Made by a program: the position numbers and the translations under genes. The notes under the pieces are model-generated. The model was not told the DNA's origin and ran no database searches. It worked only from the letters and a program-made list of their open reading frames with translations. From NCBI GenBank assembly GCA_003576845.1, contig QEVJ01000010.1, positions 706-64,705 of the forward strand: DNA of 64,000 nucleotides, read 5' to 3'. Positions within the stretch are counted from its first letter, which is position 1; the number at the start of each line of letters is the position of its first letter. The stretch is from Planctomycetota bacterium. GTDB taxonomy: Bacteria > Planctomycetota > Planctomycetia > Pirellulales > PLA5. Shown here in pieces: positions 53,736 to 58,777 of this stretch.

Positions 53736-55283
53736 TTACGCCTGGGCCTTGATCGGCGCGGGCGCGTCGCGGTAGACGGCGATGCGGTTCATGGCGTTGA
53801 GAAACGCCTTGACGCTGGCTTCGATGCTGTCGGTCGACACGCCGCGGCCCTTGTAGGTCTGGCCGTTGTATTCGACTTCGACCGTCACCTCGCCCTGCGC
53901 ATCCTTGCCGACCGTGACGCTTTGCACCTGAAACCGTCGGCAAACGACGGACAGCCCGGTGATCTTCTCGACCGCGAGAAACGCCACGTCGACGGGTCCG
54001 TCGCCGCATTCCATCGTCTCGGTCCGCTCTTCGTTGCCGCGGCGGAGCGTGAGCCGGACCTTCGGCGTGTGCCCCGTGCCGCAGACGATCTCGTACGACA
54101 CGAACGACCAGACGTCGGCGATTTCGTGAATCTGCTGTTCGATCAGCGCCGCAATGTCCCCGTCGTAGATTTCCTTCTTCTTGTCGGCGAGCACTTTGAA
54201 CTGCTCGAACACGGTTTGCAGTTGCTCGCCGGAGAGCCGATAGCCAAGCGCTCGGGCCCGATCGGCGAGCGCCGCCCGGCCGCTATGCTTTCCGAGGACG
54301 AGGTCGGTCTTGGCGAACCCGACGTCTTCGGGCCGCATGATTTCGTAGGTGCTGCGCTCCTTGAGCATGCCGTCCTGATGGATGCCGGCCTCGTGGGCGA
54401 ACGCGTTGCGGCCGACGATCGCCTTGTTCCGTTGGACTTGAATGCCGGTGATATTCGCCACGAGGCGGCTCGTCGGCACGAGGCGTTCGGTCTTTACGCG
54501 CGTATCGACGCCGTAAAAATCCTTGCGGGTCCGTAGGGCCATGACGACTTCTTCGAGCGCGGCGTTGCCGGCCCGCTCGCCGATGCCGTTGATGGTGCAC
54601 TCGATTTGCCCCGCGCCGGCCTGCACGCCGGCGAGACTGTTGGCGACGGCCAGACCCAGGTCGTTGTGGCAGTGCATCGAGATCACCGCCTTGTCGATAT
54701 TCGGCACGCGCTCGACCAGTGTGCGAATCACCTTGCCCATGTGCTCCGGCGTGGCATAACCGACGGTGTCGGGAATGTTCACGGTCGTGGCCCCGGCGGC
54801 GATCGCCGCTTCGACGACCTGGCAGAGGAAGTCCGGCTCCGTGCGGGCGGCGTCCTCGGGCGAGAACTCGATGTCGTCGCAATAGCCGGCCGCACGCTTT
54901 ACCCCGGCTACCGCTCGGGCGACGATCTCGTCCTTGTCCATCTTGAGCTTGAACTGGCGATGGATCGCGCTGGTGGCGAGAAACACGTGCAGCCGGGGGC
55001 GATCCGCCAGCTTGAGCGCGTCCCACGCTCGGTCGATATCGGCGTCGTTGCAGCGGCATAGCCCGGCGATCGTCGGGCCGTGAATCACGCGGGCGATTTC
55101 CTGCACCGCCTCGAAATCGCCGGGCGAAGCGATTGGAAATCCGGCCTCCATGATGTCGACGTTCAGATCGGCGAGGGCCTGAGCGACTTCCAGTTTCTCG
55201 GCCAGGTTCATGCTCGCCCCGGGCGATTGCTCGCCGTCGCGGAGCGTGGTGTCGAAGATACGAATCGTGCGTTCGGCAGACAT
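53736..55283 (-). CDS. leuA: 2-isopropylmalate synthase
   Basis: 'IFDTTLRDGEQSPG', 'HCHNDLGLAVANSLAG', 'GIGERAGNAALEEV', and a C-terminal LeuA regulatory domain. ATG at 55283-55281. Confidence 0.9.
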   Translation of the reverse strand: MSAERTIRIFDTTLRDGEQSPGASMNLAEKLEVAQALADLNVDIMEAGFPIASPGDFEAVQEIARVIHGPTIAGLCRCNDADIDRAWDALKLADRPRLHVFLATSAIHRQFKLKMDKDEIVARAVAGVKRAAGYCDDIEFSPEDAARTEPDFLCQVVEAAIAAGATTVNIPDTVGYATPEHMGKVIRTLVERVPNIDKAVISMHCHNDLGLAVANSLAGVQAGAGQIECTINGIGERAGNAALEEVVMALRTRKDFYGVDTRVKTERLVPTSRLVANITGIQVQRNKAIVGRNAFAHEAGIHQDGMLKERSTYEIMRPEDVGFAKTDLVLGKHSGRAALADRARALGYRLSGEQLQTVFEQFKVLADKKKEIYDGDIAALIEQQIHEIADVWSFVSYEIVCGTGHTPKVRLTLRRGNEERTETMECGDGPVDVAFLAVEKITGLSVVCRRFQVQSVTVGKDAQGEVTVEVEYNGQTYKGRGVSTDSIEASVKAFLNAMNRIAVYRDAPAPIKAQA

Positions 55284-55488
55284 AGCGAATGGTCCTTGGA
55301 TTTAGAAATTGATCGAGGGCAAATGAAGTGGAATCGAATGGCAGTCGCGCTCAGGCCGACCTCGCGGTCGGCCGACGCAACGCCAATCGTGCCCTCGCGG
55401 CCGCAAGCGTCCGCGGCCGGTTGTGGATTCGCGATGTCGGGGGAATGGACTGCATGGAACGATAACGTCAGCGGTGCGTGCGTAAACG

Positions 55489-55522
55489 AAAAAACCCCGC
55501 GGCCGGTAAGGGCTGGCGGGGT
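55489..55522 (-). terminator. Intrinsic terminator in the leuA leader (attenuator terminator)
   Basis: The minus strand reads aaCCCCGCcaGCCcttaccGGCcGCGGGGtttttt: a 6+3 bp GC stem followed by T6. It lies 206 nt upstream of the leuA ATG. Confidence 0.65.
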
Positions 55523-55567
55523 TCGTATGATTTTCGGATTGTGGCGCGGAAAACGAACCCTCGGCCC

Positions 55568-55618
55568 TTACTCGGTAAGGCCCAACAACAGCAACAGGTT
55601 CGCAATCGCGGAGTTCAT
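55568..55618 (-). promoter_or_regulatory. Leucine-rich leader peptide ORF of a putative leuA attenuator
   Basis: Minus strand: ATG AAC TCC GCG ATT GCG AAC CTG TTG CTG TTG TTG GGC CTT ACC GAG TAA, translating to MNSAIANLLLLLGLTE*. Six Leu in 16 codons, five of them consecutive. Confidence 0.6.
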
Positions 55619-56035
55619 ATCGGCATTTGTGATTGATAACGGCGCGCGAGGGTCTCGCGCCACGTCACACAGACAAATCTAGCTGCGGCCCGGTTCGCAG
55701 TCAAGGAAGGTCCAGCCCACAGAACCGCGATGCCGCGATGAAACGCCGAAGCAGTGTCGATATTCCCACTAATTGCGAAGCGCGACCGAGCGCCAACAAG
55801 CGCGGAACCCATCCCAACGGGTGGCACGTCAAGCGGCATGGACCATCTTTGGACGGCTGAGTAAACTGAGGGACGTTGATTCCGGCGTGGGAGCCGGAAT
55901 CTCTGCCCGCCGCGAATCGCGTCCCCCTGCGAGTTGGCGCGCGACGGAACGCCGCGTTTTTTACTCGATCTGCCGCCCGACCGCCCTCCTAGCTTTCTTC
56001 GCCGGGCATTTTTCTCGCCGGAAGCCGCACCCGCC

Positions 56036-58777
56036 ATGAATCGAGCGACGTTTTATGGCCGCTACGGCCTGATCGTGCTGGCGATCGTGGTGTTCCTGCT
56101 GCCGTTCACGTTCCGCGGCGCGAGGATGGCCCTCAAGAGCAACCACAACGACGTCAAAGAGTGGCTGCCCGAGGAATACGTCGAAACCCAGGAATTCAAG
56201 TGGTTTCGCAAGTACTTTGCCGGCGAGCAGTTCGTGCTGGTCAGTTGGGAAGGCTGCACCCTCGACAACACGACCAAGCTCGAAACCCTCAAGGCCGACC
56301 TGCTCAAGCCGTCCCGCGACGAAGATGGCAACTTGATCTACCCGGAGCACGACCAGGACTGGCTGATCGCGAACATCGTCACCGGCCCGGACCTGATCGA
56401 CCAGCTCGAAGGCGGGACGCCGCCGCTGGAATATGCCGAGGCATTCAAGCGCCTCGAGGGCCTGTTCATAGGGCCGGACAAGAAGACGACGTGCATGGTG
56501 ATTACGCTCTCGAACTACGGGGCGGAACACCTGCGGGCGGCCGTGAACATCATCCGCGATCGGGCGAAAGAAGTCGCCGCGCTCTCGAAGGAAGACCTGA
56601 AGATGGGCGGACCGCCCGTCGACAACGTCGCCCTCGATGAGGAAGGCGAAAGCGCCCTGTATACGCTCGCGGCGTACTCGGTCCTCATCGGGCTCGTCGT
56701 CTCGTGGTGGTGCTTGCGGAGCATGCCGCTGGTGATGATGGTCTTCATCACGGGCGTGTACGGCGCCATGATCGCGCTCGCCGCCGTTTACTACACGAAC
56801 GGCACGATGAACGCGATCCTGCTCACGATGCCGTCGCTCGTGTACGTGGCCGCGACTTCCGGGGCAATTCATCTGGCCAATTACTATCGCGAAGGCGTGC
56901 TCGAACACGGCGTGGCGGGCGCGCCCGGGTTCGCCGTGAAGCACGCCTTGTTGCCGCTGGGACTCGCAACCGGCACGACCACGGTCGGCCTGCTTTCGCT
57001 CTATATCAGCGAGCTCGTGCCGATCAAGTCCTTCGGCTGGTACTCGGCCCTGGGCGTGACGGCGACGTTGTTCCCGCTGCTCGTCGTGCTGCCGTGCATG
57101 CTCGAATTGTGGCCCGTTACGCGGACGAACAGCTTCAAGGAATTCCTGCTCTTCTTTCCGACGCAGCTTGCCCGGCCGTTTCGGTATCTCTATCGCAAGC
57201 TGACGGGCCAGGCCGTGCACCACGAGCGCGTCGTCGACACGCGGCCGCAGCGCAATTCGTGGGTCAACCCGATCGAGTTGCTGCCGTGGAGCAAGGTGGG
57301 CCACAACATAATTACGTACAACCTGCTGTGGCTCGGGGCGCTTGCGGCCGTGATGGTCGTGTGCGGCTACGGCGTGACGAAATGCGAAACGTCGATCAAC
57401 CTGATGCGGTTCTTCTCGGACAACTCGAAGATCCGCCGCGACTATGCCTGGCTCGAACAGCATTTGGGACCGCTCGTGCCGATGGAAGTCGTCGTGCGGT
57501 TCTCGCCGAACAGCGACCTCAACATGCTCGAACGGATGGAGTTGATCGAGCACGTTCATCGCGAAGTGGAAAGCCTGGCGGAAGTGGGCAGCGCCATGTC
57601 GCCCGCGACCTTCGTGCCCGAGTTGCCCCGCGGCGCTGGGTTCTCGGCCGAGCGCGTCAGTTGGAAACGCCGTCTGGAGCGCGGCCGCGAAGAGCTCCTC
57701 GGCTCCGGCTATTTGACCGTCGGCCAGGGCGAGGATGCCGGCGAAGACATCTGGCGCGTCAGTGCCCGCGTGCAAGCGCTCAAGGACATGGACTACGGCG
57801 CGTTCGTCGGCGATATCCGCGCGAAGGTCGACCCGGTCATCGAAGCCGTCAACGCCAAGGCCATCGCCACGAACGTACAGCGCGAGTTGCTCGTGGCCAC
57901 GGGCTGGTTGGCGCCGCGAACCGCAAGCGCGGCCGATGGAGAAAAGAAGCCCGGTAATCCCGGCGCCGCAGCCGAGAGCAATCCGGGTGAGGGCGCGGTA
58001 GCTCAGCTCGCCGCCGCCTTCGAGCCGCCCATTCAAGTGACGTACACCGGTCTCGTCCCGCTCGTCTACAAGGCTCAGCGATCGTTGATGGAGGGCCTGA
58101 AGATTGGCTTCGTCGGCGACTGGATTCTCATCGCGATCGTGATGATGATCGTCGTCCGCGACGTGTCGGCCGGTTTCTTGCTGATGATTCCCAGCGCCTT
58201 TCCACCGCTCATCGTGTTCGGCGTAATGGGGATGATGGGCATCGTCGTCGACACGGGCACGGTGATGGCCCCGGCCGTCGCACTCGGCGTGACGGTGGAC
58301 GACGTCGTTCACTACATGCTCAAGTTCGCGGACAAGATTCGCGCCGGCGGAACGCGCCGCGAAGCGATCATGGCCGCCTATGCCCACTGCGCCCAGCCGA
58401 TCTATCAAAGTTGGGGCGTGATCGGGCTGGGCCTGGCCGTGTTCGCCCTGTCGCACTTCATGCCGACCCAGCGATTCGGCTGGATGATGGTCACCCTCCT
58501 CACGGCGTCGACGATCGGCAACTTGACGCTGCTGCCGGCGATTCTGGCCAGTCCGCTCGGTTCGATCTTCACCTGGAGCATCCGCCGCCACGCCCGCAAG
58601 AAGGCCGAGCGCGAAGGAAAGTCGCCGGCGGAATCGTCGGTCGAACCGGCGGCCTCGCACGAACCGCACGCCGAAGAAACGCCGGTCGAGCGGACGAACG
58701 GCCGGCCCGTGCTGCCGCACACGAAGCATCGCGACACGGCCGTCCGCCACGACGCGCCGCACTCGGGATCGCGGTAA
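56036..58777 (+). CDS. MMPL/RND-superfamily membrane transporter
   Basis: Internal ATG 56036 (MNRATFYGRYGLIVLAIVVFLL). Two blocks of about 6 TM helices, each following a large soluble loop. 913 aa. Confidence 0.8.
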   Translation: MNRATFYGRYGLIVLAIVVFLLPFTFRGARMALKSNHNDVKEWLPEEYVETQEFKWFRKYFAGEQFVLVSWEGCTLDNTTKLETLKADLLKPSRDEDGNLIYPEHDQDWLIANIVTGPDLIDQLEGGTPPLEYAEAFKRLEGLFIGPDKKTTCMVITLSNYGAEHLRAAVNIIRDRAKEVAALSKEDLKMGGPPVDNVALDEEGESALYTLAAYSVLIGLVVSWWCLRSMPLVMMVFITGVYGAMIALAAVYYTNGTMNAILLTMPSLVYVAATSGAIHLANYYREGVLEHGVAGAPGFAVKHALLPLGLATGTTTVGLLSLYISELVPIKSFGWYSALGVTATLFPLLVVLPCMLELWPVTRTNSFKEFLLFFPTQLARPFRYLYRKLTGQAVHHERVVDTRPQRNSWVNPIELLPWSKVGHNIITYNLLWLGALAAVMVVCGYGVTKCETSINLMRFFSDNSKIRRDYAWLEQHLGPLVPMEVVVRFSPNSDLNMLERMELIEHVHREVESLAEVGSAMSPATFVPELPRGAGFSAERVSWKRRLERGREELLGSGYLTVGQGEDAGEDIWRVSARVQALKDMDYGAFVGDIRAKVDPVIEAVNAKAIATNVQRELLVATGWLAPRTASAADGEKKPGNPGAAAESNPGEGAVAQLAAAFEPPIQVTYTGLVPLVYKAQRSLMEGLKIGFVGDWILIAIVMMIVVRDVSAGFLLMIPSAFPPLIVFGVMGMMGIVVDTGTVMAPAVALGVTVDDVVHYMLKFADKIRAGGTRREAIMAAYAHCAQPIYQSWGVIGLGLAVFALSHFMPTQRFGWMMVTLLTASTIGNLTLLPAILASPLGSIFTWSIRRHARKKAEREGKSPAESSVEPAASHEPHAEETPVERTNGRPVLPHTKHRDTAVRHDAPHSGSR

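Follow-up and report, generated by a model that had tools for sequence, protein, structure and literature searches.

In classical transcription attenuation, a short leader open reading frame (ORF) carrying the regulatory codons is followed by four RNA regions that pair either as 1:2 together with 3:4, or as 2:3. A ribosome stalled on the regulatory codons masks region 1, a ribosome bound at the stop codon masks region 2, and the terminator precedes the first gene. The enterobacterial leu leader (leuL; Rfam Leu_leader RF00512) and the trp, his, thr and ilv attenuators follow this logic, and the same logic appears in the element described here, which lies upstream of leuA in a 64,000-nucleotide (nt) stretch of planctomycete DNA, referred to below as the window. 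Described cases comprise classical leu attenuators of Proteobacteria and, for Actinobacteria, leader peptides or LEU elements (PMC1262725). No description of a planctomycete leucine attenuator was found in Rfam 15 or in the searchable literature, with subscription-only surveys (e.g., those of the Lyubetsky group) outside our reach, in agreement with a first-pass annotation of the window, whose author was aware of no such description in Planctomycetota. We consider it about 85% probable that the element is a leucine-responsive, ribosome-mediated transcription attenuator of leuA, which would make transcription of this gene depend on charged tRNA-Leu, and judged from its sequence it is a new sequence family of the classical leu/trp type. 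The annotation had proposed a leucine attenuator at this site, and both conservation in relatives and the folding energetics of the window copy support that proposal, with amendments to region 1 and to the second half of the antiterminator.

A leucine-codon leader upstream of leuA

The gene proposed to be regulated, leuA (53736-55283, minus strand), encodes a 2-isopropylmalate synthase of 515 amino acids (aa) whose Pfam domains (HMGL-like, 1.8e-98; HCS_D2; LeuA_dimer) identify it as a bona fide LeuA; it is seemingly monocistronic, and the LeuA proteins of the relatives used below are 71-79% identical to it. Read along the minus strand, the locus consists of a promoter-like site, the leader ORF, GGGTTCGT, a 26-nt linker, ACGAACCC, the hairpin CCCCGCcaGCCcttaccGGCcGCGGGG, TTTTTT, a spacer of 205 nt between T6 and the leuA ATG, and leuA itself. 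The MMPL-family gene upstream starts at 55934 on the plus strand, and because it is divergent, the terminator cannot belong to it.

The leader ORF, MNSAIANLLLLLGLTE plus TAA, occupies 55568-55618 on the minus strand (stop at 55570-55568) and was recognized from the sequence and from homologous mini-ORFs in relatives. It reads ATG AAC TCC GCG ATT GCG AAC CTG TTG CTG TTG TTG GGC CTT ACC GAG TAA, and its ATG is 335 nt 5' of the leuA ATG (55283), as annotated; the other features quoted in the annotation were likewise all present on the minus strand where it had placed them. Six of the 16 codons specify Leu and five of these are consecutive, so that codons for the end product are clustered. Leu codons 8-12 (CTG TTG CTG TTG TTG, 55583-55597) are the putative regulatory codons, on the basis of sequence, codon use and footprint folds, and the sixth, CTT, lies at 55579-55577. 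Starting instead at the in-frame GTG at 55663 would lengthen the leader to 31 aa; this is disfavored, since relatives indicate an ATG start and a peptide of ∼19 aa.

Conservation was evaluated in 80 leuA loci from species-representative genomes, all of Planctomycetota and mostly labelled Pirellulales, Pirellulaceae or Thermoguttaceae. A mini-ORF was counted if it started with ATG, was 10-32 codons long, included a stretch of 7 codons of which at least 4 were Leu, and lay within 700 nt upstream of leuA. Such an ORF was found in 57/81 loci, compared with 0.9% of other 700-nt windows from these loci and 2.9% of dinucleotide shuffles, and several further loci had GTG-started leaders. For the whole element, a covariance model comprising the 1:2 helix and the terminator was built from 52 relatives, with the window excluded. 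Positions 55487-55618 of the window matched this model over its full length (positions 1-132 of 132) at 62.1 bits (E=5e-11), and this was the only copy in the 64 kb. Among the relatives, 64/80 loci matched, always upstream of leuA and on the same strand, with 11 of the matching loci lying outside the training set and scores of family members ranging from 30 to 110 bits. Conservation had been set beforehand as a check on the attenuator proposal, and it was thus found both for the Leu-run mini-ORF and for the complete element. When metagenome contigs were scanned with an exact core pattern, five of the six matches were upstream of leuA with Leu-rich leaders; the sixth, inside a coding region, was dismissed as chance.

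The leader peptides of the family have a median length of 19 aa (range, 15 to 26), and the ATG (or GTG) start is retained in the same frame. Leu accounts for 36.6% of codons in frame 0 of the leaders, compared with 5.3% and 3.7% in the other two frames, and 39-42 of 54 leaders have Leu at each position between -14 and -6 relative to the stop, apart from -12 and -7. At each conserved position of the run, five or six different Leu codons are used, and all six occur across the family; retention of Leu through differing codons points to selection on codon meaning rather than on sequence. Conservation of the peptide is poor beyond the Leu run, and part of what is seen reflects RNA pairing, namely the Asn codon within GAACC, CUA against UAG, and a C-terminal RRP derived from GGCC.

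The choice of Leu codons in the leaders also differs from that in leuA of the same loci. The rare codons CTA (18.4% vs. 2.0%), CTT (19.2% vs. 6.7%) and TTA (8.7% vs. 3.0%) are enriched 3- to 9-fold in the leaders, and CTG and CTC are depleted. In the window, the leader has three TTG, two CTG and one CTT codon, compared with 0/34 TTG and 1/34 CTT among the Leu codons of its leuA. The annotation had taken TTG and CTT to be minor codons in this DNA, which is correct relative to leuA but for TTG does not extend to the window as a whole, since in a rough set of its ORFs with high third-position G+C, TTG makes up ∼16% of Leu codons and is not truly rare.

Predicted alternative pairings upstream of leuA

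An intrinsic terminator lies between the leader ORF and leuA, at 55489-55521 on the minus strand. It consists of an interrupted stem (CCCCGC ca GCC cttacc GGC c GCGGGG, 55521-55495), with a stability of about -16 kcal/mol, followed by TTTTTT (55494-55489). A simple terminator scanner did not detect it in the window, presumably because of the interrupted stem, and terminators were instead located by combining T-runs with RNAfold. In the 54 leaders from relatives, hairpins of about -14 to -28 kcal/mol with a T-run were located 52-83 nt past the leader stop, with the family consensus CGAACCCCGAGGCC-loop-GGCCUCGGGG-U6-7. The family stem is paired in 92.3% of alignment cells, and five measures of pairing were far above those of slid controls.

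The 5' arm of the terminator is shared with a putative antiterminator. Region 2, recognized from folds and forming the antiterminator 5' strand, spans 55553-55571 and consists of G-TAA-GGGC, which holds the leader stop codon, then CGA and GGGTTCGT (55560-55553). Region 3 (55506-55526) consists of ACGAACCC (55526-55519) and GCCCTTAC (55513-55506), and can pair either with region 2, as antiterminator, or with region 4, as terminator. The two structures share 55521-55506 and are mutually exclusive, and the antiterminator is calculated to be the more stable one. The family-conserved region 1, GCGAACCT (55596-55603, minus strand), was identified from nascent-transcript folds and the covariance-model alignment; it takes in the Asn codon that immediately precedes the Leu run, together with its flanks. 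In the RNA of the window, region 1 (GCGAACCU, 55603-55596) pairs with the GGGUUCGU part of region 2 (55560-55553) and would act as an anti-antiterminator.

These assignments modify those of the annotation, which had drawn 1:2 as a small hairpin of GGCCTTAC (55582-55575), loop CGA and GTAAGGGCC (55571-55563). That hairpin (55563-55582) exists in the sequence and sits inside the larger 1:2 structure, but alone it is worth only -7.7 kcal/mol, and none was seen in the leaders of relatives, by inspection rather than by a systematic test, so that it appears specific to the window copy. The conserved GCGAACCT:GGGTTCGT pairing, i.e., the true region 1, had been overlooked. The 2:3 pairing proposed in the annotation was retained as an extension of the antiterminator into the terminator loop (GUAAGGGC:GCCCUUAC), but the conserved GGGTTCGT:ACGAACCC helix had been missed.

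The same regions are recognizable across the family. The region 1 consensus, (C)GAACC(U)(AC), lies at the Asn codon 5' of the Leu run and mimics region 3; that of region 2, GGCCnUAG-GGUUCG, has the leader stop codon at its middle; and that of region 3, CGAACCCC-GAGGCC, is also the terminator 5' arm. The stop codon of the relatives lies inside the antiterminator strand GGCCnTAGGGTTCG in essentially all family members, and is TAG in 43/54. The window has GGGCC-GAG-GGTTCG in place of the ancestral GGCC-TAG-GGTTCG, with its TAA stop 8 nt upstream.

In the window copy, the calculated energies were -22.4 kcal/mol for 1:2 (outer GCGAACCU:GGGUUCGU enclosing the small inner hairpin), -26.1 for 2:3 and -15.8 for 3:4. 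Because 1:2 and 3:4 sum to -38.2 kcal/mol, this combination is the default state. When region 1 was masked, 2:3 won over 3:4, and when region 2 was masked, 3:4 alone remained. Folding energies had been named as a check in the annotation, and they favor the alternatives that it proposed. In partition-function calculations, the terminator had a probability of 0.39 in free RNA; a ribosome placed at the stop raised this to 0.99, and one whose A site was on Leu8-12 lowered it to 0.00-0.04. In silico, then, region 1 lies beside the regulatory codons where a stalled ribosome masks it, and a ribosome bound at the TAA (55570-55568), which is inside region 2, occludes that region.

The 54 leaders of relatives were also examined one by one. 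Cognate 2:3 duplexes had a mean energy of -21.0 kcal/mol, compared with -17.6 for non-cognate pairs and -12.7 for shuffled region 2, and the cognate duplex was better than the non-cognate in 51/54 leaders (Wilcoxon p=4e-10). For 1:2, 71.3% of cells were paired, compared with 25-61% when the partner was slid, and in transcripts ending just past region 2, this region paired with upstream leader sequence at P>=0.66 in 54/54 leaders. To approximate co-transcriptional folding, transcripts were also cut before the terminator 3' arm; when a ribosome footprint covered the Leu run, 2:3 formed in these at P>0.5 in 48/54 leaders.

Promoter, proposed mechanism and rival explanations

A promoter scan predicted a sigma-70-type promoter at 55676-55704 on the minus strand, with a -35 box TTGACT (55704-55699), a 17-nt spacer and a -10 box TAGATT (55681-55676). 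This was one site where 0.2 was expected in shuffles, and from its position we infer a transcription start at ∼55669, ∼50 nt before the leader ATG. The same scan of the spacer between the terminator and leuA in the window returned no promoter-like site. Among relatives, 42/52 had TTGAC[CTG]-N16-18-TANNNT in the 110 nt preceding the leader ATG, compared with 0/1296 control windows. The end of the -10 box is 27-81 nt before the leader ATG in most relatives and 57 nt in the window. In eight loci this distance is only 6-10 nt, which suggests that the leader messenger RNA (mRNA) is leaderless in these cases, with neither a 5' untranslated region (UTR) nor a Shine-Dalgarno sequence.

A GAACC or GCGAACC box, repeating a word found in RNA regions 1 and 3, adjoins the -35 box of the leader promoter in part of the family. 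It was found within 22 nt upstream of the -35 in 16/42 loci, at 5-16 nt, compared with a background of 2.3%; in the window (55698-55692) and in two relatives, gcgaacc is instead just downstream of the -35. Since the box is outside the transcript, it could be a regulator site or the trace of a duplication. The predicted 5' UTR of the window, between the presumed start and the leader ATG, also contains a 7-bp G+C-rich hairpin (GCGCGAG acc CUCGCGC, 55644-55660, minus strand).

Transcript data were sought in public sequencing runs holding the window sequence, which come from metagenomes of sludge, bioreactors and soil. One contig from a metatranscriptome (depth, 2.7) is identical to the window and spans 55656-55337; it starts just downstream of the predicted start and runs through the terminator, and 55680-55895 is uncovered. 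Other RNA-labelled runs gave patchy, low-depth contigs on both sides.

In the mechanism that we infer from these features, RNA polymerase would start near 55669 at the sigma-70-type promoter, and a ribosome would translate the 16-codon leader. When leucine is plentiful, the ribosome would reach the TAA within region 2 and occlude this region, leaving region 3 to pair with region 4, so that the terminator would form and polymerase would stop at T6 (55494-55489). When leucine is scarce, the ribosome would stall on Leu codons 8-12 and cover region 1 (GCGAACCU) and the small inner hairpin; the freed region 2 (GUAAGGGC...GGGUUCGU) would then pair with region 3 (ACGAACCC...GCCCUUAC), and this 2:3 structure would block the terminator and let polymerase read on into leuA. 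Without translation, 1:2 would pair and termination would occur by default.

Several observations speak against this mechanism. In full-length equilibrium folds of the relatives with a ribosome on the Leu codons, the median terminator probability was ∼0.8, and clear switching was seen in only 7/54. Since most relatives keep the terminator at equilibrium, the decision must be kinetic, i.e., made co-transcriptionally, which folding cannot show. In a MAFFT alignment, column-wise pairing was only 72.7% for the antiterminator, compared with 70.0% in shuffles, and only 71.3% for 1:2, compared with 67.3%. The covariation check suggested in the annotation was thus positive for the terminator, where 8/10 pairs carry compensatory changes, and marginal for the other two helices. 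We attribute the weak column-wise signal to highly conserved columns and to indels in the alignment, and the per-sequence comparison of cognate with non-cognate duplexes is the more informative test. The window copy itself is atypical, with its stop shifted 8 nt upstream, a 16-aa peptide and a score in the lower range of the family, and no Shine-Dalgarno-like sequence was found before its leader ATG. The metatranscriptome data are too thin to reveal a start site or a terminated leader transcript. No copy of the element was detected in 16/80 relatives, two of which have too little upstream sequence to judge; the other 14, with at least 589 nt of upstream sequence, yielded no leader by either the ORF scan or the model. 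These include several loci labelled Pirellula sp., one labelled Planctomicrobium and one labelled 'Kuenenia'; leuA is presumably regulated differently there, and they may mark the taxonomic limit of the family. Lastly, when attenuator-like leader peptides of Streptomyces leuA were mutated, their behavior was not that of classical attenuators (PMC1262725), so that resemblance alone is no proof of attenuation.

Three other explanations were weighed against ribosome-mediated attenuation. The RNA switch might be real but sensed by a protein, by tRNA in the manner of a T-box, or by a small molecule, the Leu-rich ORF being a by-product of pairing. Pairing does account for part of the peptide conservation (AAC in GAACC, CUA against UAG, RRP from GGCC), and an actinobacterial LEU element with Leu codons was judged likelier to be a protein-binding site (PMC1262725). 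However, Leu is kept in 39-42/54 leaders through five or six codons at each position of the run and is 7-10 times commoner in frame than out of frame; the ATG (or GTG) start frame is also kept, the stop falls inside the antiterminator strand in essentially all members, and no T-box or riboswitch family was matched even at E<=10. We therefore regard a different sensor as unlikely. A still smaller likelihood attaches to the idea that the mini-ORF encodes a hydrophobic micropeptide as a small gene in its own right, complete with terminator, and that leuA is transcribed from a promoter in the 205-nt spacer with no regulatory link between the two. The peptide is indeed hydrophobic, the terminator is strong in most relatives, and the spacer is long and holds further conserved sequence. 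Yet linkage to leuA is invariant (64/64 copies in loci and 5/5 true metagenome matches), and five relatives have just 25-37 nt between the start of the T-run and the leuA ATG, which leaves no room for a promoter; nor did the scan place one in the spacer of the window. The peptide varies from 15 to 26 aa and is poorly conserved outside its Leu run, and on this reading the antiterminator and region 1 would have no purpose.

Coincidence deserves the least credence of all. DNA rich in G+C contains many ORFs and hairpins, and the whole 141-nt stretch folds only modestly better than its shuffles (z=-1.85, with 8/200 shuffles as good), so that a chance ORF beside a chance hairpin had to be considered. 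This reading is refuted by the Leu-run controls (0.9-2.9%), by the match at E=5e-11 to a model built independently of the window, and by the presence of the element in 64/80 relatives. Attenuation by a translating ribosome is thus the explanation that we retain.

A second module and comparison with known systems

The spacer between terminator and leuA contains another conserved element, at 55351-55455 on the minus strand, which probably belongs to the same 5' leader as a second module. In the window it comprises an upstream ORF (uORF) MQSIPPTSRIHNRPRTLAAARARLALRRPTARSA with a TGA at 55353-55351, a conserved CGAGGGC box (55397-55391), conserved Leu-x-Leu codons TTG GCG TTG (55386-55378), and the hairpin GGCCGACC gcga GGTCGGCC (55373-55354), which covaries in relatives. 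About half of the family, the window included, has this module, with the consensus CGAGGGC-nnGG-TTG-GTG-TTG-CCC-GGG-CCGACC-nnGG-GGTCGGC. A search of about 580 kb with nhmmer found it in 34 sequences. In every case it follows the leader terminator and lies 78-191 nt ahead of the leuA ATG, and no copy was found at any other place. An ATG-started uORF in the frame of the Leu-x-Leu codons was present in 29/30 modules. Synonymous changes (TTG, CTG, CTC, CTT, CTA) preserve Leu at codons 1 and 3 of the triplet, the codon between them is variable (V, L, A, D, P), and the position of the uORF stop is not conserved. The hairpin starts 5 nt past the last Leu codon, shows compensatory changes, is not followed by a T-run, and was the sole structure returned by RNAalifold. 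Pairing of the module with the leuA ribosome-binding region was tested and none was found. The Leu box gave only a weak signal of pairing with a variable downstream segment (cognate -13.3 vs. -11.9 kcal/mol, p=0.003), with 7/30 loci at p<=0.05 against shuffles.

A speculative extension, which we consider less likely than not, is that many Pirellulales leuA genes are under a two-stage leucine sensor, in which the classical attenuator is followed by the Leu-x-Leu uORF and hairpin acting by another, undescribed route; such an arrangement would also be genomic evidence for coupled transcription and translation in this branch of Planctomycetota. For this second stage, one hypothesis, by analogy with the tna operon, is that a stalled ribosome would melt the hairpin or block Rho loading; another, by analogy with the actinobacterial LEU element, is that a base stem would involve the Leu codons.

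Two neighboring features were also observed. A 140-codon ORF at 55615-56037 on the minus strand ends in ATGA, overlapping the leader ATG, and also overlaps the start of the opposite-strand MMPL-family ORF; given this overlap in DNA of 65% G+C, it is probably spurious. Next to the start of the MMPL gene, the divergent intergenic region contains a long but imperfect hairpin, CAGGGGGACGCGAUUCGCGGCGGGCAGAGAUUCCGGCUCCCACGCCGGAAUCAACGUCCCUCAG (55864-55929, minus strand), which could serve that gene as an operator or as a structure in its 5' UTR; a weak match to a microRNA family there (E=0.59) is meaningless.

If ribosome-mediated attenuation operates here, it has consequences beyond leuA. The mechanism works only with a ribosome close behind RNA polymerase, and purifying selection on its architecture across Pirellulales therefore argues, on sequence grounds alone, for coupled transcription and translation in this group. 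Coupling bears on an older debate about planctomycete cells, which have been regarded as compartmentalized. The element adds a well-supported cis-regulatory RNA family, present in about 64/80 species-level genomes, to a phylum whose gene regulation is poorly known. Its promoter, leader and terminator, about 220 nt in all, form a compact and putatively leucine-responsive part that might serve planctomycete genetics as a reporter or tool, and the second Leu-codon uORF and hairpin are likewise of experimental interest.

No Rfam family accounts for the locus. A search of the whole window against Rfam at gathering thresholds gave no relevant match, and within 55200-56000 no leader family was matched at E<=10, including Leu_leader (RF00512), the Leu/Phe leader (RF01743) and the T-box. 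Weak matches to mir-6794 and to Bacillus ncr1175, the latter covering the terminator only, were attributed to chance, and the 'Rhodopirellula-1' motif (Weinberg 2010) is an unrelated, repeat-like hairpin.

The Lactococcus Leu/Phe leader (RF01743) and the Staphylococcus aureus ilv-leu peptide (PMC5794164) resemble the planctomycete element in having Leu-rich peptides and premature termination of branched-chain amino-acid genes, but they are unrelated in sequence, come from Firmicutes and serve other genes. The LEU element and leader peptides of actinobacterial leuA, as here, place a Leu-codon uORF upstream of leuA outside the Proteobacteria (PMC1262725). The LEU element has no terminator and carries its Leu codons in the base stem (Seliverstov et al., 2005; PMC1262725). 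It resembles the second module of the window, where Leu-x-Leu codons are followed by a hairpin with no T-run, whereas the first module, unlike the LEU element, has all the parts of a classical attenuator. Compared with the enterobacterial leu leader, whose logic it shares, down to a run of Leu codons biased toward rare ones, the planctomycete element belongs to another phylum, has no detectable homology in sequence or structure, and precedes a seemingly monocistronic leuA rather than leuABCD. It further differs in its consensus, which places the stop codon in the middle of the antiterminator strand, in the apparently leaderless leader mRNA of some members, and in the second uORF module that about half of the family carries.

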